Positions 21,752 to 33,476 of a stretch of DNA of 43,891 nt are shown here, piece by piece. Location: the sequence record OR525704.1, one strand, 5' to 3'. The notes beneath the pieces are model-generated. The model saw nothing but the letters and a program-made list of their open reading frames with translations. It was not told the DNA's origin and did not search any database. Position 1 is the first letter of the stretch, and each line of letters starts with the position of its first letter. Origin of the DNA: Escherichia phage vB-Eco-KMB35. Both the position numbers and the translations under genes were made by a program.

Positions 21752-23932
21752 ATGTCAAGCGGATGCGGTGACGTTTTAAGCCTGGTGGATTTACAAACCG
21801 CCAAGAAACACCAGATTTTCGAGGCCGAGGTTATCACCGGTAAAGCTGGCGGTGTAGCTACGGGTGCTGATATTGATTACGCAACTAATCAGGTTACGGG
21901 ACAGACACAGAAGACGTTGCCAGCCGTGTTGCGTGACGCCGGGTTCAGACCTGCGCCATTCACATTCGAAACAGGTGGGACTTTGGGCGTTAACGACGCT
22001 GACCTGGCGGTGTTGTGGCCAGGGCCATCAGGCGACGGCAACTATTATGCATGGAAAGGTGCCCTGCCAAAAACCATCCCGGCATCTTCAACCCCGGCGT
22101 CTACGGGCGGAGTAGGCCAGACCGCATGGGTTGCCGTTAGTGAAGCTGCATTGCGCCGTGATTTGGCCCTAAGCACTGGCGCAGGGTTAGTTGGGACAAC
22201 ATCCGGCAGGACCGTACAGGCAGAGTTTGACTACCGCAAGACTCAAGCAGCAAAAACAGAGATAAACATACTTGACTACCTTCCGGATAACGTGATCGCG
22301 GCGCTAAACGATGTTAACGCGTCAAAAGCTCTAGGAAGCGTAAGGACATACATTGAGCAGGCTTTAGCGGCAGCAACGAGCGCGAATATCGGTACGGGGG
22401 TTACTTTACGTTTCCCGGCTGGGTTCTTTTGGCTTGATTCTACTCTTAACCTACCTCGTAGGACGCGTATTATCGGGGTCTATCCAGAAACATATTTCAT
22501 GGCGCTCCCTAGCTTCACTGGCACTAACGTAATTGCTGGCGCTACAGGGCCTGCTATCGTCGCTATTGATAATTCAGGGCAAGACCCGTTTTATATTGAA
22601 GGTTTCCAGATAAACGCAGATGGTTCACAGCCGAATGTGGTTGGACTTCACATTGGCGGCTGCCGTAATGCTGTCGTCCGCCGGGTATCCGTATCCGGTA
22701 CCTTCGATGCTGGTGTTGTTATCCACCCTAAAAACGCAACATCTGGAGACGTAGAGAACCTTGAATTAAGCCATGTATGGACCTTAGGCGGGGGGCTTGT
22801 GCTCCGGTCTAATACCGCTATTACCCGCGGCAATTTAACAGGTCTGTCATTCCGGGATTGCATGTTCTTCAGTACAATCGACAACAACCCATCATGGGCG
22901 ACATCCGGTAACCCTAGTATTAGGTTCTCCTGCCATGTAGACCGACAGATTTTTGCATGTACATTCGACCGCGTTGGCTGGGCGAGCCGTGCGACATACG
23001 CCATCTACTCAGAAAGTCTTGCTGGAGATACCGCGTCAGACGTAAAAGGTTTCCGAGATATTCATTTCTCAGATTTCCACGGAGAAGCGCATAACGCCGA
23101 CGGCTCTCTAACATCAGATTGTACGTTCGCTCTTCTCACAAAGATGCGGAACAGCACATTTACTAACATCCAACGCTCCGGCGCTGTGACTCGCGGCGGT
23201 ATTATCATGGATGGGTGCGAATACGTAACATTCAACTCAGTATCGTTTGCGGACCCTAATATCACAACAGGAACAACGGCACCCATTTGTGTATACCAGA
23301 ACTCCACCAACAGATTTAATAGATTTATTAACTGTGACTTAACAGATGCAACCGGAAGTATGTTTGATTTAGCTGGTTGGACTATAGCCCAGAGTGTTAT
23401 GTATTATTTTAAAGGTTTATTTTGGGATGATAGCGGAACCAGTATATGGGAAAGCGAACAGATGTCTTCTACGCCGCGAGTACTGTTTCACCGAGCGGCG
23501 CTAAACCAAAGTAACGGCAGCGGATACCCACAGCAGTCGGGGGTGACTATGGCGACATCGGGTGATAACTTGCAAGTTACTTTCGCGAGAGACGCCACTA
23601 CAAAACTGTTTACTATCCCAATAACTTCGGCGTCAGGAGCTTTTAATAACCAAGACCGAGTGTATGTCTTATTCCGCCATCAGTTCACTAGCTATGGAAC
23701 TAATACGGTTGTAAAAATTGGACTAGGAAACTCTTATGTAACCATATCCCCTCAGAGTGGGAGTGATTATTTTGCGGCTATTAGCCTTAAAAGAAGTCAG
23801 GCTACAAGTTTTAACATTCAAGTTATATACAGCGGTGCATCTGCCGATTGTGGAATTCTAATTCGAGATTTAGTAATTTCTGACAGGATGCCGTGGGCGC
23901 CAAACTTCACCAAATCCTTACTTTGCGATTAA
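21752..23932 (+). CDS. Tailspike / tail fibre receptor-binding protein, probable beta-helix (possible depolymerase)
   Basis: 726 aa, last structural gene; body rich in repetitive G/N/T/S beta-strand-like segments. Confidence 0.55.
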   Translation: MSSGCGDVLSLVDLQTAKKHQIFEAEVITGKAGGVATGADIDYATNQVTGQTQKTLPAVLRDAGFRPAPFTFETGGTLGVNDADLAVLWPGPSGDGNYYAWKGALPKTIPASSTPASTGGVGQTAWVAVSEAALRRDLALSTGAGLVGTTSGRTVQAEFDYRKTQAAKTEINILDYLPDNVIAALNDVNASKALGSVRTYIEQALAAATSANIGTGVTLRFPAGFFWLDSTLNLPRRTRIIGVYPETYFMALPSFTGTNVIAGATGPAIVAIDNSGQDPFYIEGFQINADGSQPNVVGLHIGGCRNAVVRRVSVSGTFDAGVVIHPKNATSGDVENLELSHVWTLGGGLVLRSNTAITRGNLTGLSFRDCMFFSTIDNNPSWATSGNPSIRFSCHVDRQIFACTFDRVGWASRATYAIYSESLAGDTASDVKGFRDIHFSDFHGEAHNADGSLTSDCTFALLTKMRNSTFTNIQRSGAVTRGGIIMDGCEYVTFNSVSFADPNITTGTTAPICVYQNSTNRFNRFINCDLTDATGSMFDLAGWTIAQSVMYYFKGLFWDDSGTSIWESEQMSSTPRVLFHRAALNQSNGSGYPQQSGVTMATSGDNLQVTFARDATTKLFTIPITSASGAFNNQDRVYVLFRHQFTSYGTNTVVKIGLGNSYVTISPQSGSDYFAAISLKRSQATSFNIQVIYSGASADCGILIRDLVISDRMPWAPNFTKSLLCD

Positions 23933-23962: not shown

Positions 23963-24098
23963 ACTCTTCTGATAACTTCTCCAGTACAAACGCCAGTTGC
24001 GCATTAGCGGCATCTCTCTGCTGACGTAGTCGTAGAACCTCTTCTTCGAGTTCCTTGATACGTTTTTGCAATGCTGGAATCGGGGCTATGATGTTCAT
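23961..24098 (-). CDS. Small coiled-coil protein (45 aa)
   Basis: ORF below track cutoff; heptad-like KRIKELEEEVLRLRQQRDAANAQLAFVLEKL. Confidence 0.35.
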   Translation of the reverse strand: MNIIAPIPALQKRIKELEEEVLRLRQQRDAANAQLAFVLEKLSEE

Positions 24099-24280
24099 TT
24101 CTCACCTTCGCTTTTCTTGAAGCTGCGCTTTATGTCCGGCAGCGTGTAACATCGTGACTTTTCATATTTACCGTTCGAGCTTACTAAAACAAAGCTGTTG
24201 CCGTCTTTTGATATGTACTCGATGGTGAAAGTATTGAATGAGCGTATGCTGTATATTTCATCGCCAACATTAAGTTTCAT
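24095..24280 (-). CDS. Hypothetical protein (61 aa)
   Basis: Start overlaps helicase stop; translationally coupled. Confidence 0.45.
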   Translation of the reverse strand: MKLNVGDEIYSIRSFNTFTIEYISKDGNSFVLVSSNGKYEKSRCYTLPDIKRSFKKSEGEK

Positions 24281-25701
24281 TTCTTACCTCGTCTCTTCAT
24301 GTAATTAAGCAACTCTTCCTGTACCGATTTTTTCTCGTCCGTACGCGCGGCAACAACCTCGTCCAGCGTGTCTTTAGCGACGATATGATAGAGGAACACC
24401 GGGCGCTCGTGTCCCGCCTGTTTCTGGCGGACCGGGCCTATGCGCTCAACAACCTGTAAATAGTGCTCAAGGTTCCACCCTTGCGAAATAAACGCCAGAT
24501 GATGTCCGCCGTCCTGTAAATTCAAACCATGACCAGCTGACGCAGGATGCACGCATAAGATTTCGATTTCGCCACGGTTCCACGCTTCCATCTGCTTATT
24601 ACCCTTCGCACCTTTAGCAAACGCCTGTGCTTGCGGGAATCGCTTAAGGATACGCTCCAGTTCGTGCTTGAACTGATAAGCCACCAGTAACGGCGCACCT
24701 TGTAGCTCCTCAACAATTGACTCGAGCGCATCCAGTTTCGTGTCGTGCACTTTCTCCCAGTCTTTGGTTGCTTCTCCGTCGTCACCCGTCACATACACGG
24801 CACCGGAAGCAATCTGCAAACACTTAGACGTCTTCGCTGCCGCGTTAGCCGCTTCAACTTCCCCGCTCTCCAGTTCCGCGAATAACTTTTCCTCCATATC
24901 GATGTACGCCTGACGCGCTTTCTTCGGCAGGTCGATTTCAACAGGTACGATAACCGGCGCTTCGCATCCGAACCACTCAGCGGCGTCAATCGTGAGACTG
25001 ATGTCCTTCATCTTCTGGTGGATTTCAGTATCCGCACCCGGGCGGGCGTGGTATTCGCGCGCCATAGCAGATTTGCCCTTCTGCACCGAGTTAAACCAGC
25101 GGTCGGTGAATGCCGTGTACGAAGAACCGAGGCGCTCGCCCGCGTCGATAAACCAGTTCTGTCCCCACAAGTCCTTGAGGCCGTTAGGCGATGGTGTACC
25201 TGTCAGGTTGATAAAACGCTTAACCTTTCCGAACGCCACTCTACTAAGCGCCTTCGCCCGCTTGCTGCCGCCTGAACGGCTGCGGAATGACTTCAGTTTC
25301 GTGCTTTCATCGGCAACGATAACGGTAAAAGGCCAGTCGTCTTTGCCGTAGTAGTCAATCAACCACTCTATTACCTCATAGTTCGTGCACACCACGTTAG
25401 CGTCCGACTCCAGCGCCGCGATGCGGCGCTTCTCTGAACCGGTCGCGTCTACGACACGCAGACATGGGAAATTCCACTTAGTTTGTTCCGCCGGCCATGT
25501 GCCTGATGCAACGCGCAACGGGGCGAGGATTAACACGCGGTCCTCTTCTGTAAGCTGCCCGTTGCGGAACAGTCGGTTTAATGTCCACAGTACGCTGCCA
25601 GTCTTCCCGGCGCCCATGCTCGCCCAAATATTACAGCGATGGTGCCGCAACATGAACGAAGTCATTAGCTTCTGGTATTCGCGCCTTTGAAACTTACTCA
25701 T
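24277..25701 (-). CDS. SNF2/DEAD-like superfamily 2 helicase
   Basis: 474 aa; Walker A GAGKTGS, DExx box VIVADESTK, C-terminal helicase domain. Confidence 0.75.
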   Translation of the reverse strand: MSKFQRREYQKLMTSFMLRHHRCNIWASMGAGKTGSVLWTLNRLFRNGQLTEEDRVLILAPLRVASGTWPAEQTKWNFPCLRVVDATGSEKRRIAALESDANVVCTNYEVIEWLIDYYGKDDWPFTVIVADESTKLKSFRSRSGGSKRAKALSRVAFGKVKRFINLTGTPSPNGLKDLWGQNWFIDAGERLGSSYTAFTDRWFNSVQKGKSAMAREYHARPGADTEIHQKMKDISLTIDAAEWFGCEAPVIVPVEIDLPKKARQAYIDMEEKLFAELESGEVEAANAAAKTSKCLQIASGAVYVTGDDGEATKDWEKVHDTKLDALESIVEELQGAPLLVAYQFKHELERILKRFPQAQAFAKGAKGNKQMEAWNRGEIEILCVHPASAGHGLNLQDGGHHLAFISQGWNLEHYLQVVERIGPVRQKQAGHERPVFLYHIVAKDTLDEVVAARTDEKKSVQEELLNYMKRRGKK

Positions 25702-26488
25702 TTACGGCCCCCATGAACGCCTTTATAAATTCAGCGGCTACTTGCGGGACGATAGCATTGCCGTAACCGCGCAATCGTCCCACTCTGGCGGGTACCCCAT
25801 TAGCCAGCGGGAATGTGCTGGGTTCAACTGGCCTGAATTTTCCATCCCGGCATCCGAGCCAGTCAGCATCTGACCAGAACCCGTTAGGCGGATTGGCTGT
25901 GTCAGAGATGCCTCTGTTTGCAGATTGTGGCCCCCGTTCCTGCCCTGATGGCCTGCTCCCGCCGAGTTGTTCGCACACGGTGTTGGCCAGTTGCTGCGCT
26001 CCGAAGAACAATCGATTCCTTTTGTGCGGTGCGCCGACGCTACAAGCTGGGAGTACGGCAAACCCGACGGCGTAGTCTTCTCTTTCCAGGTGAGTTTGTA
26101 AATCGCACATCCACGATTTTGCAATTGCTGCCGCAACCTGCTCCCCAAAGATGACTGGAGGGTGGCACTCGCTGATGAGGTCGAGGAGCACAGGTGCGAG
26201 GTGTCTCTGGTCGAACTGTCCGAGTTGCTTTCCTGCCGTGCTAAACGGTTGGCAAGGCGGACTTCCCGTCCATATAGGCGTATCTTCAGAAACTCCCGCA
26301 AGTCTGAGCGCGAGAGGCCAGCCGCCGATACCCGCGAAAAAATGACACTGGGTGAACCCGTCAAGGTCTTCTGGCTTAACTTCGGTAATGCTTCTTTCAT
26401 CTACAACTCCAAAAGGTATGTGACCCTGTTTTATCAACTCACGCAGCCACGCGGCTGCGCCTTTATCCCATTCATTGTAATAGTTCAT
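25694..26488 (-). CDS. DNA (cytosine-5) methyltransferase
   Basis: 264 aa; motif I FAGIGGW, motif [13 protein letters not shown], QxRxR-like KRNRLFF, C-terminal GNAIVP. Confidence 0.7.
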
Positions 26489-26676
26489 TTCGCCACCAGC
26501 ACCAGCTCTTTACGCCCGAACGCCGTAACGTTACCCGTTACATCTTCGATAACCAGTTTACCGTTCGACTCGACGAACACCGTATCAACGGCAACAGGTT
26601 GACGTGTCTTAACGTTGAAAATCATGTCACCCGGTACGATGTCACGTGCTGGTTTGCGGTCGTATTCGTGTTTCAT
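26485..26676 (-). CDS. Hypothetical protein (63 aa)
   Basis: RBS AAGGAA; overlaps methyltransferase start. Confidence 0.45.
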   Translation of the reverse strand: MKHEYDRKPARDIVPGDMIFNVKTRQPVAVDTVFVESNGKLVIEDVTGNVTAFGRKELVLVAK

Positions 26677-26706
26677 TTCTCAATTCCTTATATTGTTGGT
26701 GTGTGA

Positions 26707-26994
26707 TTAACTATAATAGCCCGCTATTAGGTCGTCAACCTGTTTAAACGAACCAACGACAAAAACATTTGCACCACGTTTACGCATCCGCTCGTGCTCT
26801 CGTAACTGGTGCGGGTCCGGCTTCGTGTTTTCGTCTTTCTTAACCTCGACGAACCAGATGATGCCACCAGGGAGAATTACCAGCAGGTCGGGGGCGCCGG
26901 AGCGCCCCTCATAAGACAGCTTACGAACGAGGCCACCAATGGCCTCGAATCGCTCTTTTGCGTATTTCTGCACGCGCCCCTCAGGCGTACTCAT
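26707..26994 (-). CDS. VRR-NUC domain nuclease
   Basis: 95 aa; PDLLVI...VEVKK PD-(D/E)XK-type motif. Confidence 0.7.
   Translation of the reverse strand: MSTPEGRVQKYAKERFEAIGGLVRKLSYEGRSGAPDLLVILPGGIIWFVEVKKDENTKPDPHQLREHERMRKRGANVFVVGSFKQVDDLIAGYYS
26709..26738 (-). promoter_or_regulatory. Promoter element family B (minus-strand TTGACG-N17-TATAGT) overlapping the 3' end of the VRR-NUC gene
   Basis: 30-nt element aactataatagc-NNN-ctatt-NNNN-cgtcaa shared with 30898 and 33447. Confidence 0.45.
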
Positions 26995-27075
26995 CTATAC
27001 ACCCCTCACGTTTCGTATGTTCAGTACCGCAGCGCGGACAGATTCGACAGTCTTCTTCATAAAACCAGTAGATTT

Positions 27076-27207
27076 TCATTCCAGCACCCACAGATAAATT
27101 GCGATGAACATGCCCAATATGGCAACCATCATGCCGTATTGACCCTCGTGACAGTAGACACCGGCAGCAAATCCCGCCAGTACCGCGATAATCAGTTTAC
27201 TTGGCAT
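27076..27207 (-). CDS. Small membrane peptide (43 aa)
   Basis: Strong AAGGAG RBS; hydrophobic sequence LIIAVLAGFAAGVY...MMVAILGMFIAIYLWVL. Confidence 0.45.
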   Translation of the reverse strand: MPSKLIIAVLAGFAAGVYCHEGQYGMMVAILGMFIAIYLWVLE

Positions 27208-27892
27208 CTCTACATTCTCCTTCAGGCCACCTATTAGGAAAAGACGGTATATGTGAAACTTCTCTCGCCGCTTTTATTCTTTTAATGGCGGGACCTATCT
27301 CCGTAACCATTTCAATGAATGTAAACCGGTGTCCTCTGGTAAGATTACATGTCTGACAACAAGAAACGCAGTTAGATACTATGTGCCCGCTTGTATTATC
27401 TATGCGGTCTACCCCGACTTTTGTAGTGCTTCCGCAATAATGGCATGGCTGTGATATTAGTTTAATAACGCTTTCCAGTGTTAAATCGCAGATAAGCCCT
27501 TTTCCTGAATCTGCTCTTTTGTATCCTAACAAAAGCGCGTACGCCCGCGTCCTTTGGTCCTTATTCACCAGTTCCCTGCGTTGCTTGTTGAGACACTCCC
27601 GGCAATCTTTCCTGATATGAGAGCCATTACTTTTATTTCCTTTCCTGAAGTTTTCCTCTGTTAAAGGTTTTACCTCCCCACACTTTCTGCATTTAACAGG
27701 CTTCCCAGTGAAAACATACCAAGGGCTTTCTCGTCTGGATTTACCTTGTAATTTAAGTTTTTCGTCATACTTTTCCTTCCTGTTAGCATTTACACACTCT
27801 TTACACCAGCGTTGCAGCCCGAGGCGCGTTGACTTTGAAAAATACTCTGTAGTCGCCGGTTTATCTTCGCCGCATCTTGAACACTTTTTCAT
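27197..27892 (-). CDS. HNH endonuclease with two N-terminal CxxC zinc-ribbon repeats (homing-endonuclease-like)
   Basis: ATG 27892 with GGAG RBS; repeated C-R/K-CGE-KP...C-E-C modules; C-terminal CHYCG...DRIDN...H HNH motif. Confidence 0.7.
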   Translation of the reverse strand: MKKCSRCGEDKPATTEYFSKSTRLGLQRWCKECVNANRKEKYDEKLKLQGKSRRESPWYVFTGKPVKCRKCGEVKPLTEENFRKGNKSNGSHIRKDCRECLNKQRRELVNKDQRTRAYALLLGYKRADSGKGLICDLTLESVIKLISQPCHYCGSTTKVGVDRIDNTSGHIVSNCVSCCQTCNLTRGHRFTFIEMVTEIGPAIKRIKAAREVSHIPSFPNRWPEGECRDAK

Positions 27893-27902
27893 TAATAACT
27901 CC

Positions 27903-27939
27903 AAAAAAAAAAATACCGACATAGCCATTATATCGGTAT
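27903..27939 (-). terminator. Minus-strand intrinsic terminator: hairpin ataccga/tcggtat followed by T11
   Basis: 11-nt A-run on + strand (27903..27913) adjacent to 7-bp inverted repeat, just 3' of DNA polymerase gene. Confidence 0.6.
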
Positions 27940-27971
27940 TTACATTTTCTACAACGTATTTCCTAAATCTA

Positions 27972-30152
27972 CTACTTGGCGTATCTGTACATTTCGCTAC
28001 CTTCTGCTACAAGAGGGAACCCCTCCGCCCATTCTGGTAATTCGCACATCAATCGCTCAAGCTCTGCGACATTGTATTCCGGCGTATCTGGAGTTTCGCA
28101 GATAATCTCATCGTGGACATGAAGTACAATTGGATAACCGTTTGCTTCTACGTTCAGCAGCGCGTTGGCCAGCAAATCACGGCACAACGCCTGAGTGCAG
28201 TTTTCCACCAGTTTACCAGAGTAGGTGTACTGGAAGCCCCACTGCCGGGTTAACTGGTTTTCGCCCTGGTACTTGATGCGCACGTTAGTAGACACCTTTC
28301 CATCTTCGTCTGTCTCTTTCGACACACTTAATCCGACGCCCGGGTATGACATAACGCGACCCGACGGCAACGTCATGCGCAACCACCAGCCCGCGACTTT
28401 GTCGCCGTTGTTGTCTGTCTCTATGTTACGCGAAAACTTAACGCCTCGCGGTCCTGCGGTGAACTCTTTACCTGGATTGCGGATAGCGGCCATAGCTGCG
28501 TCTTCAATATCTCGCCAGAAAGCTACTGTTTCAGGGTGTGACTCTCGCCACATACGCTTGATAGCGTCACAGGTACGCCACACTTTCTTATCAAGAATAT
28601 ACGATGGTCGGTCATCCTTCTCCCCGGGTCGCGGCGGTCGCTTGGCTTCCTGAATACGTGCCCATTCATAGCCGCGTGCAGTAGCCGCCCAGATGTGGTC
28701 CGGGAAAGTACCGTCCATTGTTTTTGACATATCAACAAGGTCAAGTCCGAGGTTCTTAGCAAACTGAACGAAAGCGCCAACACCACCAGCGTAGCCGAGG
28801 CCAAGCTCGCAGGCTTTACCAATCTGGCGCAAGTCTTTGCGTTCCTTCTTAATGTAATCCGGCTCCATGCCGAACATCTTACCCGCGGTTACACAGTAAA
28901 TGTCCAGCCCGGCGCGGAACGTATCTAGCGCGGTTTCTTCGCCTGCCAGCCACGCAAGCCCCCGACCTTCAACGTTAGAGTAATCGGCGACGACAAACTT
29001 TTTTCCGGCTTCCGGGATAATGCAGCTACGCACCGTCGATGCCGTTAGCTTAGCGACATCGAAACGGCGATGCGCGCGGCCCTTAAGTAACGCTGAAATA
29101 CCTTTATCCAGTTCATCATCGTGATAGTACCCACGCGCGAGGTTCTGCGGCTGAAATCCTTTACCGGCAAATCGTAATGTACGCTTGGCTCCGCCGTACT
29201 GAATGCAACCACGACGGCGGTCGTCCGACGAGCGCCCTAACAGCAGCGGGTTATATTTCGTTGACGCTGTGGACGCGGCCCCGAGGCGCATTTCGATAAT
29301 CGCGCGGGCGTCGTCCGGTAAATCATCGTCCGCCAGCAGGTCGTTAAGCGTTGACTTCTGTGCATTGTGTATGCGGTGCGCGGGCGCAAGTTCACGCAGA
29401 ATCGGAAGGAAGTCTTTACCGGTAAGCGAGCCGCCGTATTTACGTTGAGCTTCTTCCTGTAACTGTGCCTTGTGCTTCTCTACGGCTTCAATCGCGGCTT
29501 CCGCCAGTGCGACGTCAACCTTAAATCCGCGGTCGTTGATTAACTGGTCAAGTTCCAGTACACGGTCTTCGAATTCGGAGTTACCCCACCGCGGCAGCTT
29601 ATGGAACACTTCACGCATCGCTGTGATGTCACTCACGGCATACTTGATAAACAGCGCCCACTCATCCGGGTGCGTTTCCGCGGTATAGCGGCGGATTTTG
29701 TAGTTCTTCGGCGTCGGTTTAGAGAAACGCTTAATCAGAGCCTTGCCGCGTTTATCTTTCGCGTTGTCTGCAGACACGCCCAGCACTTCGCACAGCGCAT
29801 CAAGAGAACCCGGCAGCGCGTGACGGAACGCCCAAATCATAGTATCAATGGTGTTGCTTACCGGAATATCAAAGCCCCAGCAGTGCTTCATGACGAGCCT
29901 ATCGAAAAGTCCACCGTTGTGCCACACCATCTTGATGCGGCTGTTGGGCTTAACAAGGCGGCGCAGTGCGCGGTGTAAATCCCCCGGCATGTCGCTGCCG
30001 TCGGTGCAATCCCATACCCGCACAGGTTCGTCGTCAAAAGCATATGTACAGATAAGCACTTCGGTTGACGGGTGTTCGGCGTAAGCGTAAGAACCGACTT
30101 TCTTCAAATCGGCTTCTGAGAATGTTTCAAAGTCTAAGAACAGGTAACTCAT
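27972..30152 (-). CDS. Family A DNA polymerase with N-terminal 3'-5' exonuclease domain
   Basis: 726 aa; exo motif FLDFETFS; polymerase motifs DYSNVEGR (A), RQIGKACELGLGYAGG (B), HVHDEI (C). Confidence 0.9.
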   Translation of the reverse strand: MSYLFLDFETFSEADLKKVGSYAYAEHPSTEVLICTYAFDDEPVRVWDCTDGSDMPGDLHRALRRLVKPNSRIKMVWHNGGLFDRLVMKHCWGFDIPVSNTIDTMIWAFRHALPGSLDALCEVLGVSADNAKDKRGKALIKRFSKPTPKNYKIRRYTAETHPDEWALFIKYAVSDITAMREVFHKLPRWGNSEFEDRVLELDQLINDRGFKVDVALAEAAIEAVEKHKAQLQEEAQRKYGGSLTGKDFLPILRELAPAHRIHNAQKSTLNDLLADDDLPDDARAIIEMRLGAASTASTKYNPLLLGRSSDDRRRGCIQYGGAKRTLRFAGKGFQPQNLARGYYHDDELDKGISALLKGRAHRRFDVAKLTASTVRSCIIPEAGKKFVVADYSNVEGRGLAWLAGEETALDTFRAGLDIYCVTAGKMFGMEPDYIKKERKDLRQIGKACELGLGYAGGVGAFVQFAKNLGLDLVDMSKTMDGTFPDHIWAATARGYEWARIQEAKRPPRPGEKDDRPSYILDKKVWRTCDAIKRMWRESHPETVAFWRDIEDAAMAAIRNPGKEFTAGPRGVKFSRNIETDNNGDKVAGWWLRMTLPSGRVMSYPGVGLSVSKETDEDGKVSTNVRIKYQGENQLTRQWGFQYTYSGKLVENCTQALCRDLLANALLNVEANGYPIVLHVHDEIICETPDTPEYNVAELERLMCELPEWAEGFPLVAEGSEMYRYAK

Positions 30153-32666: not shown

Positions 32667-33167
32667 TTATTCTTCTTCGAAATACTTGTTCTTGATTGCT
32701 GTCAAGCGTTCCAGGTATTCAGCCAGGTCTTCGTCTTTAATCGCTGCAATCTTCATTTTCTTACCTGTGAACTCTTCCAGCAGTTCATCAGAATCATCGC
32801 ACGCGGCATCGCTCGGACCTTCGTTAATTGCATCGTCGATAGCCTGAATCTGGTCGCGCAGAGACTTATAGTCTACTTCTTCTTTCTCTTCTTCCGGCTC
32901 TGGCGTCGTTTCCTCTACTTTAGCTTTACGCGGCTTGCGTTTTGGCTTCTCTTCTTCTGCCGGTTTAGTGTCAACGATGTCTTCACCTTCTGCCGGGATT
33001 TCTTTTGTTGCTTCTTCAGCGCACTCAGCTACCGCTTCTTTGGTGTACGATACAGTCTCTACTTCCAGCGGCGCGGCAACCTGAACAACTTGTTTCGCAC
33101 TGTTCGCGGCAATCAGTTCATGTGCAACTACGAAACGTTCCAGCAATACTAAGAATTTCTCTAACAT
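32667..33167 (-). CDS. Highly acidic protein (166 aa)
   Basis: E/K-rich low-complexity centre (EEEKPKRKPRKAKVEETTPEPEEEKEE). Confidence 0.5.
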   Translation of the reverse strand: MLEKFLVLLERFVVAHELIAANSAKQVVQVAAPLEVETVSYTKEAVAECAEEATKEIPAEGEDIVDTKPAEEEKPKRKPRKAKVEETTPEPEEEKEEVDYKSLRDQIQAIDDAINEGPSDAACDDSDELLEEFTGKKMKIAAIKDEDLAEYLERLTAIKNKYFEEE

Positions 33168-33191
33168 TTGTTTCTCTCCTGTTTGTGTAAG

Positions 33192-33419
33192 TTACTCACC
33201 GTCGCCTTCAGTAAGGCTATCGTCTATTAGTTCAAATTTACCGTTTGAGTGTTGAATAGCTTCTTGCCCGCAATGGTCACAGACAACAAGTTTATCGAAC
33301 CCATCAAACTCATCCCCTACTACGCAAGAAAGTACAAATTTATGTTTTGTGCACACTTCTTGCGGAGCGCCGAAAATTGCTCGAAAACCTTTAGCTATGG
33401 CCCCAGTGATTGTGTTCAT
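33192..33419 (-). CDS. Small zinc-ribbon protein (75 aa)
   Basis: CxxC-like Cys pairs (C..C...C..C); RBS GAGAGGGG; first gene downstream of promoter 33447..33476. Confidence 0.5.
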   Translation of the reverse strand: MNTITGAIAKGFRAIFGAPQEVCTKHKFVLSCVVGDEFDGFDKLVVCDHCGQEAIQHSNGKFELIDDSLTEGDGE

Positions 33420-33446
33420 ATCTGCCCCTCTCGTTTGGTATGGGCT

Positions 33447-33476
33447 AACTATAATAGCGAACTATTCACATGTCAA
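33447..33476 (-). promoter_or_regulatory. Promoter element family B (minus-strand TTGACA-N17-TATAGT), early leftward promoter
   Basis: Consensus hexamers with 17-nt spacer; palindromic core TAATAG-N4-CTATTC. Confidence 0.6.

Follow-up and report, generated by a model that had tools for sequence, protein, structure and literature searches.

PacI, a restriction enzyme of known structure (PDB 3LDY/3M7K) from group 20 of the His-Me finger nucleases (Jablonska et al. 2017), has no general-base histidine, and a tyrosine of its omega loop is taken as the substitute (PMC5714182, PMC4081073). In lactococcal Skunavirus phages, free-standing PacI-like HNH genes recognised with HHpred are rare and variably present, and are presumed to encode homing endonucleases (PMC12724721). 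The T-even mobE and mobA–D genes (HNH) and seg genes (GIY-YIG) are inserted between conserved genes, occur sporadically and have short co-converted flanks; the carrier allele differs at the presumptive target, and expression is tempered by hairpins and terminators, with some promoters nested in hairpins (PMC2988022, PMC2790892). T4 endonuclease VII (gp49), a zinc-containing beta-beta-alpha-Me nuclease, belongs to the His-Me finger superfamily as well. Here we describe a gene for a PacI-like beta-beta-alpha-Me (His-Me finger) nuclease of 231 amino acids (aa) in Escherichia phage vB-Eco-KMB35 (sequence record OR525704.1; the window is the whole stretch of 43,891 nucleotides (nt), to which all positions refer). 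The gene lies on the minus strand at 27197..27892, after the gene of DNA polymerase A, and on the comparative evidence it probably belongs to a free-standing homing-endonuclease-type cassette of about 0.8 kilobases (kb), inserted at the junction of the polymerase gene with the next open reading frame (ORF). The cassette would comprise a recoded polymerase end with a double stop, a hairpin with a T-run, a sigma-70-like promoter with its -10 hexamer in the hairpin loop, a ribosome-binding site (RBS) and the nuclease gene.

Around the locus, 1.7 kb match Escherichia phage NicoleGrasset_Bas72 at 99.9% identity; this member of the BASEL collection is a siphovirus of Kagunavirus type (Guernseyvirinae). 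With 323 further phage records that match the flanks, the total is 324. Only three of these 324 Kagunavirus-type records, Bas72, Bas73 and Bas74, carry the gene, and the same three alone were returned by tblastn at an identity of at least 99%. In Dhillonvirus, a homolog of about 50% identity occupies the polymerase/VRR-NUC junction in 26 of 158 records; in other genomes the junction is bare or holds another small insert. With empty sites in 321 of the 324 Kagunavirus-type and 132 of the 158 Dhillonvirus records, the gene is far from universally conserved. It behaves as a free-standing, sporadic and horizontally moving nuclease gene within an essential operon, and in this the comparison of relatives bears out an earlier note on this DNA, which had seen here a free-standing endonuclease gene typical of homing genes that have invaded such an operon. 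Five cassette-less genomes were examined at the site (DUEC01, Bas70, Bas75, phiWAO78-1 and NTEC3). In each of them the polymerase gene overlaps a 43-aa ORF by 11 nt, and no intergenic region or terminator is found at the junction. The empty junction reads GTAGCGGAAGGT CAGGAGTTAAAACGCT ATGCTAAGTAAACTG, and the filled one reads GTAGCAGAAGGT AGCGAAATGTACAGATACGCCAAGTAGTAG, then the cassette, then GAATGTAGAG ATGCCAAGTAAACTG.

The position after the polymerase is retained among relatives of the nuclease. All homologs of 60–64% identity whose context was read (P0003, P0004 and P0005, as well as L023 at 63%) directly follow a DNA_pol_A gene, and the metagenomic contigs L012, L013, L016 and L023 have the homolog after DNA_pol_A in similar replication modules. 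More distant relatives are found at other intergenic positions, for example beside a portal gene or between tail genes. The wider family comprises 15,719 cluster representatives at E <= 1e-3, 1,766 at E <= 1e-10 and five at E <= 1e-30. A search of other phage records for the 5' part of the cassette found none, nor did one for cassette footprints, in which the recoded tail and hairpin would be present and the gene absent.

In Dhillonvirus, the polymerase/VRR-NUC junction is itself a hot spot: Opt212 (L021 813-1049) has an unrelated 78-aa ORF there, and PTXU06 (L020 845-877) has a 31-nt spacer. The PTXU06 sequence CGGAAATGTTGCTTTT after the polymerase was considered as a footprint and rejected, since the same sequence stands upstream of the cassette in filled Dhillonvirus genomes; it is probably ancestral intergenic DNA. 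In another Dhillonvirus record, Pubbukkers, the polymerase is annotated as intein-containing.

Four backbones share the same element of about 0.8 kb, and the identity blocks match the indel to within 14–60 nt. The cassette-less Bas75 is 100% identical to the window over 28006-29051 and 26819-27162; the differences are the indel, aligned at 27208..27996 with a net insertion of 775 nt, and three single-nucleotide polymorphisms (SNPs) on each side. Bas73 and Bas74 differ from the window by two SNPs and the T-run length within 27167-28031, and their flanks are about 10% diverged (41 mismatches in 28032-28455 and about 60 in 26600-27166). The IMG/VR contig L022 has one SNP in 27194-28019 and 10–15% divergence outside, which sets in 3 nt past the nuclease stop on one side and 24 nt into the polymerase gene on the other. 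From the comparison with L022, Bas73/74 and Bas75, the minimal horizontally shared block is 27194..28019 on the minus strand, that is, the cassette with no more than 14 nt of flank at one end and 24 nt at the other. Two marks of homing genes are found here, namely sporadic presence beside intact empty sites and a block of identity that matches the element in extent (0–2 SNPs in about 830–865 nt). Mosaic blocks exist elsewhere too; the case for element-specific transfer is made by the identity block coinciding with the indel.

The junction itself differs between filled and empty alleles beyond the presence of the insert. The polymerase gene ends with a TAG at 27972, the end given in the earlier note, and a second TAG follows directly. 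Its last eight codons (27996..27972, minus strand) are cassette-derived and, by comparison of the tails, recoded: the empty allele reads CAG GAG TTA AAA CGC TAT GCT AAG TAA and the filled one AGC GAA ATG TAC AGA TAC GCC AAG TAG TAG. The resulting peptides are QELKRYAK and SEMYRYAK, respectively, and the length of the polymerase, 726 aa, is unchanged. Every codon of the R-Y-A-K-stop stretch except AAG is synonymously different in filled versus empty alleles, and those of Dhillonvirus show the same pattern (TAT CGC TAC CGC AAG TAG versus TAC AGG TAC AGG AAG TAA). Such a recoded tail would have the appearance expected of a cleavage-resistant carrier allele.

The cassette is bounded by an imperfect direct repeat of 19–21 nt. 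The left copy, AATGTACAGATACGCCAAGTA (27973..27993, minus strand), is the polymerase end, with the ATG destroyed and the double stop; the right copy, AATGTAGAGATGCCAAGTA (27198..27216, minus strand), contains the final codons of the nuclease gene, its stop, and the start codon ATG of the 43-aa ORF. Aligned as AATGTACAGATACGCCAAGTA against AATGTAGAGAT--GCCAAGTA (27216..27198), the copies give 18 matches in 19 and a 2-nt gap in local alignment, a score reached by none of 2000 shuffles. As the polymerase gene and the 43-aa ORF overlap, end to start, any insert between the two must duplicate the shared stretch. The nuclease ORF runs into the degenerate copy of the polymerase tail and therefore ends at the ancestral polymerase stop, by which the 11-nt overlap is restored: the 43-aa ORF overlaps the nuclease stop here and the polymerase stop in the empty-site genomes. 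The T-even mob and seg insertions are unlike this one, in which an overlapping gene pair is split and the cassette duplicates the overlap. The duplicated junction accounts for only the last six or so codons of the nuclease gene; derivation of the whole C-terminal tail of the nuclease from a polymerase tail was rejected, as homologs of 60–64% identity share ...FPNRY..GE.K.

These comparisons also bear on a reading of the locus as a moron-like accessory unit, encoding a nuclease that acts against competitor or host DNA in the manner of a restriction enzyme and spreads passively by mosaic recombination. The unit looks self-contained in its expression, the solved structure nearest to the nuclease is that of a restriction enzyme, viral homologs of PacI have been proposed to be viral 'restrictases' (PMC5714182), and mosaic blocks are common in the region. 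Passive spread would have to be reconciled, however, with identity blocks that equal the indel to within 14–60 nt in three independent backbones, with homologs that hold the post-polymerase position down to 50% identity, and with recoded polymerase tails in the filled alleles of two genera. Taken together, matching block and indel, kept position and recoded tails form the pattern expected of break-stimulated, site-specific copying, and we consider the accessory-unit explanation unlikely.

Between the polymerase and nuclease genes lies a hairpin that resembles an intrinsic terminator (27903..27941, minus strand), with a 13-base-pair stem (27941..27911), a 5-nt loop and a run of 11 T (27913..27903). 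The Shine-Dalgarno sequence GGAG, read from the letters at 27899..27902 on the minus strand, abuts the T-run and stands 6 nt upstream of the ATG; the earlier note had likewise described a hairpin, a T-run and an adjoining GGAG. The hairpin folds alone at -13.7 kcal/mol, and the folding of the 83-nt gap (z = -3.8) was matched by none of 200 shuffles; a stable stem-loop directly followed by a U-run is the arrangement by which intrinsic terminators are defined. Every homologous cassette, Dhillonvirus included, has a hairpin upstream, and a T-rich run comes after it except in L013. What is conserved is the structure of the hairpin and not its sequence, with double changes at five of 12 consensus pairs among cassettes whose proteins are 50–64% identical; in the RNAalifold alignment of six cassettes the window hairpin is out of register, and the conservation of structure rests mainly on the individual folds. 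Judged from the alignments, hairpin and T-run are part of the cassette and lie inside the transferred block. Where the window has 11 T (27903-27913), Bas72, Bas73, Bas74 and L022 have nine; the difference, the only one from Bas72 in the region, reflects length polymorphism of the homopolymer or else the sequencing.

The earlier note had gone further and taken the gene to be a promoter-less homing endonuclease gene set behind the operon's own, pre-existing terminator and expressed by read-through only. The hairpin and T11 are real, a consensus promoter scan of the gap was empty, and there are precedents in T4, where several free-standing endonuclease genes are promoter-less and terminators limit mobE and segF (PMC2988022). 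The empty sites examined have, however, neither intergenic region nor terminator, the polymerase gene overlapping the next ORF, and the terminator lies inside the transferred block; its pre-existence is already contradicted by the empty-site alleles. The claim that the gap holds no promoter is likewise doubtful. A -35-like hexamer TTGTAG (27949..27954, minus strand), within the conserved block AAATRCGTTGYWG, is followed after 16 nt by a perfect -10 hexamer TATAAT (27927..27932, minus strand), which falls on the top of the stem and the loop. This TTGTAG-16-TATAAT element (27954..27927) is one of two TTGNNN-N16-18-TATAAT sites on both strands of the 43.9-kb window, the minus strand of which has seven TATAAT in all. 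Versions of it are present in all Kagunavirus-type cassettes: TTGTAG-16-TATAGT in L022, TTGTAG-16-TATAAT in L016 and TTGCTG-16-TATAAT in L023, as well as TTGTAG-17-TATTGT in L012 and TTGCAG-17-TATTGT in L013, the last two with a 17-nt spacer. No other part of the gap is conserved as well as AAATRCGTTGYWG. With the terminator inside the block and the promoter-like element present and conserved, expression by read-through alone, behind an older terminator, seems quite improbable.

The T4 genes I-TevI and segB and mobE of Aeh1 are known cases of a promoter lying within a regulatory hairpin (PMC2988022). The hairpin described here is, unlike the RBS-sequestering stem of T-even mob and seg genes, of the terminator type and situated upstream of the RBS. 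RNA from the putative start near 27920, about 7 nt downstream of the -10 hexamer, folds at only -1.9 kcal/mol and is essentially unstructured. Sequestration of the RBS in long transcripts was also considered; no claim is made for it, as the minimum free energy structure pairs GGAG via weak G-U and A-U pairs only. The next good promoter on the minus strand is at 26738..26710, with the 43-aa ORF, a 32-aa ORF and the VRR-NUC gene in between. In carriers, these three genes would be dependent on read-through or on the cassette promoter.

The nuclease gene was called mechanically as a 243-aa ORF (27197..27928), whose first ATG is within the hairpin loop. The start at ATG 27892..27890, giving 231 aa, is favoured by the RBS and by the homologs, which start at MK.C, and the GenBank record of Bas72 annotates the identical 696-nt coding sequence. 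The protein starts with two zinc-ribbon modules, the first formed by residues 1-48 (27749..27892, minus strand) with Cys4, Cys7, Cys30 and Cys33, and the second by residues 65-112 (27557..27700, minus strand) with Cys68, Cys71, Cys97 and Cys100. The repeats of the form C-x2-C-G-E-x-K-P ... C-x-E-C recognised in the earlier note are confirmed by the alignment of residues 3-40 with 67-107 (44% identity, E = 6e-9). The catalytic domain, residues 124-210 (27263..27523, minus strand), has a zinc site made of Cys150, Cys153, Cys179 and Cys182, together with Asp162, Arg163, Asp165, Asn166, His170, Asn174, Asn183 and Arg186. The motif elements named in the same note, CHYCG (150-154), DRIDN (162-166) and H170, are in place.

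Residue conservation was assessed on a phmmer alignment of about 200 family members. The cysteines of module 1 are 98–100% conserved where the module is present, and the catalytic domain follows the motif C150-x-Y-C153-G ... G160-x-D162-R163-x-D165-N166 ... G169-[Y/H]170 ... N174 ... C179-x2-C182-N183-x2-[K/R]186, in which Asp162, Arg163, Asn174 and Asn183 are 99–100% conserved. Searching with the family profile retrieves PacI at E = 6.6e-12 over PacI residues 3-135, with the catalytic domain aligned to 89-135. A single-sequence search of the PDB gives PacI at E = 0.14 only; with the profile and fold comparison significance is reached, and PacI is by far the closest solved relative. The AlphaFold model, built on 56 sequences, has a mean predicted local distance difference test score of 89.7, with disorder limited to residues 220-231.

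Several hallmarks of the PacI group can be recognised: a beta-beta-alpha-Me core with a structural Cys4 site, an N-terminal Cys4 motif (module 2, aligned with PacI 3-30), and replacement of the canonical general-base histidine, Asp162-Arg163 aligning with Asp92-Arg93 of PacI. As candidate metal ligands, Asp162/Asp165 and Asn183, 84–99% conserved, align with Asp92/Asp95 and Asn113 of PacI, as judged from sequence only. PacI and the nuclease have in common G-x-D-R-x-D ... G-[Y/H] ... N ... C-x2-C-N-x2-[K/R], with arginine in the place of the general-base histidine. The omega-loop tyrosine of the group is absent: the residue facing Tyr100 of PacI (numbered by our own count from the HMMER alignment) is His170. 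Position 170 is tyrosine in 54% and histidine in 45% of the relatives, and histidine is invariant in the polymerase-associated clade. Histidine is chemically able to serve as a base, but its presence here departs from PacI. The nuclease is, by this comparison, a PacI architecture to which one more zinc ribbon, at the N-terminus, and a short tail of 20 aa have been added, and it resides on a sporadic phage cassette, unlike PacI, which belongs to a bacterial restriction locus.

This assignment does not agree with two labels given to the protein. The earlier note had called it an HNH endonuclease, and a canonical HNH nuclease is not what is found: no HNH family was matched in Pfam at E <= 0.1 and no family whatever in NCBIfam at E <= 1, Arg163 stands where the histidine of the Asp-His pair would be, and PacI is the closest solved relative. 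Weak Pfam matches to Cys_rich_CPXG, Stc1 and DUF6510 were set aside, being below their own cutoffs and reflecting cysteine spacing only. Membership in the PacI-like clade, with no canonical histidine, also separates the nuclease from the T-even mob and seg enzymes. The second label, 'endonuclease VII', goes back to PHROG 1035, which bears this name and matches the nuclease at 1e-29, and could suggest a housekeeping recombination or replication nuclease, a resolvase working alongside VRR-NUC, whose gene is nearby in the same replication/recombination module. In contrast to T4 endonuclease VII, the nuclease gives no match to Endonuclease_7 (PF02945) in Pfam, has no Asp-His dyad and is not conserved among relatives. 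The GenBank name is, on these searches, a family-label artefact, and the housekeeping resolvase reading, already disfavoured, can be given hardly any weight.

In the homing explanation that we favour, the nuclease would, in a mixed infection, nick or cut a genome without the cassette at its polymerase-tail junction, which is uninterrupted there. The break would then be mended by phage recombination with the carrier genome as template, and the cassette would be copied together with only tens of flanking bases. Carriers themselves would be immune, as proposed, because their site is both split and recoded. Transcripts of the polymerase operon would largely stop at the hairpin, and those from the nested promoter would start near 27920 and read through the nuclease and downstream genes; with the start inside the 3' arm of the hairpin, the hairpin could not form in them. 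We can speculate further that the cassette is an 'insulated' autonomous homing unit, whose terminator stops polymerase-operon transcription and whose loop promoter restarts it, placing the nuclease, the small ORFs and VRR-NUC under cassette control, and that its enzyme would be the first demonstrated PacI-clade homing endonuclease, with histidine replacing the catalytic tyrosine. This extended version is tentative, and we regard it as possible rather than probable.

Several observations weigh against the homing explanation or parts of it. The stem is A/T-rich, only three of its 13 pairs being G-C, so that the efficiency of termination is uncertain, and the hairpin of L013 has no proper T-run. 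The promoter-like element matches the -35 consensus at three of six positions (the -10 at six of six, with a 16-nt spacer), and the consensus promoter scan did not call the site; in the cassette of Dhillonvirus, the hairpin is present with TATTGT in the loop, and no -35 can be recognised. These phages are mosaic, with other blocks of 100% identity, for example 25400-26400 versus Bas73, and general recombination could have carried the cassette. Among the genes reported to exclude phage in Skunavirus, the one PacI-like gene tested does not appear (PMC12724721).

The surrounding minus-strand operon of replication and recombination genes encodes an ssDNA-binding protein, DNA polymerase A, small ORFs, VRR-NUC, a C5 methyltransferase and an SNF2 helicase. 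The polymerase gene occupies 27972..30152 on the minus strand (726 aa; Pfam DNA_pol_A, E = 9e-16). The 43-aa ORF (27076..27207, minus strand) encodes a hydrophobic, membrane-type product of PHROG 10404. It is followed on the minus strand by the 32-aa ORF (Bas72_0039, 26981-27079), the product of which, MKIYWFYEEDCRICPRCGTEHTKREGCIDEYA, is a CxxCxxC...C mini-protein; relatives have one to three additional small ORFs at this position. The VRR-NUC-like nuclease gene (26707..26994, minus strand), outside the cassette and included for context only, matches Pfam VRR_NUC at E = 0.0016, under the curated cutoff, and is annotated in GenBank as a Holliday junction resolvase. The location between polymerase and VRR-NUC given in the earlier note is correct on the polymerase side, and on the other side the 43-aa and 32-aa ORFs separate VRR-NUC from the nuclease gene.

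Variation is also seen at other places in the window. At 24095-24280, a 61-aa ORF, present in Bas75 too, is missing, through an indel of about 182 nt, from Bas73, Bas74 and DUEC01, and is thereby a further small accessory gene of patchy occurrence. The C5 DNA methyltransferase gene at 25700-26450 is 100% identical to that of Bas73, Bas74 and DUEC01 and only 42–68% to that of Bas75 and L022, which suggests allele replacement, possibly with a different methylation specificity. Within the otherwise conserved polymerase gene, 28700-28950 is a hypervariable patch (61% identity to DUEC01, 47% to L022, and a 9-nt indel). At 33000-33430, about 250 nt present in Bas73 and Bas75 are missing from Bas74 and DUEC01, and beside this segment the minus strand carries a strong promoter-like sequence (33476..33448, TTGACA-17-TATAGT). 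The tail-spike gene at 22200-23900 has about 50% identity to Bas73 and DUEC01 and 70–96% to Bas74 and Bas75, which looks like exchange of a receptor-binding module, independent of the cassette.

Free-standing homing endonuclease genes are a familiar category, and it is the comparative evidence that is unusually clean in this case. The new points are the PacI-type domain with histidine at the tyrosine position, the cassette-borne terminator with its nested promoter-like element, the duplicated overlap and the near-isogenic partner. In the literature searched, no PacI-type enzyme reported as a homing endonuclease was found; the Skunavirus PacI-like genes are from a different phage group and lie in a morphogenesis module, and no comparative evidence of this kind is described for them (PMC12724721). 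The analysis corrects the database label 'endonuclease VII', and the alternation of tyrosine and histidine at the catalytic position bears on the unusual mechanism of PacI. Bas72 and Bas75, which share both collection and river of origin, differ over about 1 kb on each side of the site by the cassette only; such a pair lends itself as a natural experiment on homing, on the mapping of the target and on co-conversion, in a coliphage that is small and genetically tractable. The terminator with its nested promoter-like element, together with the duplicated overlap, illustrates how a selfish insert may enter a translationally coupled operon and leave both genes intact.

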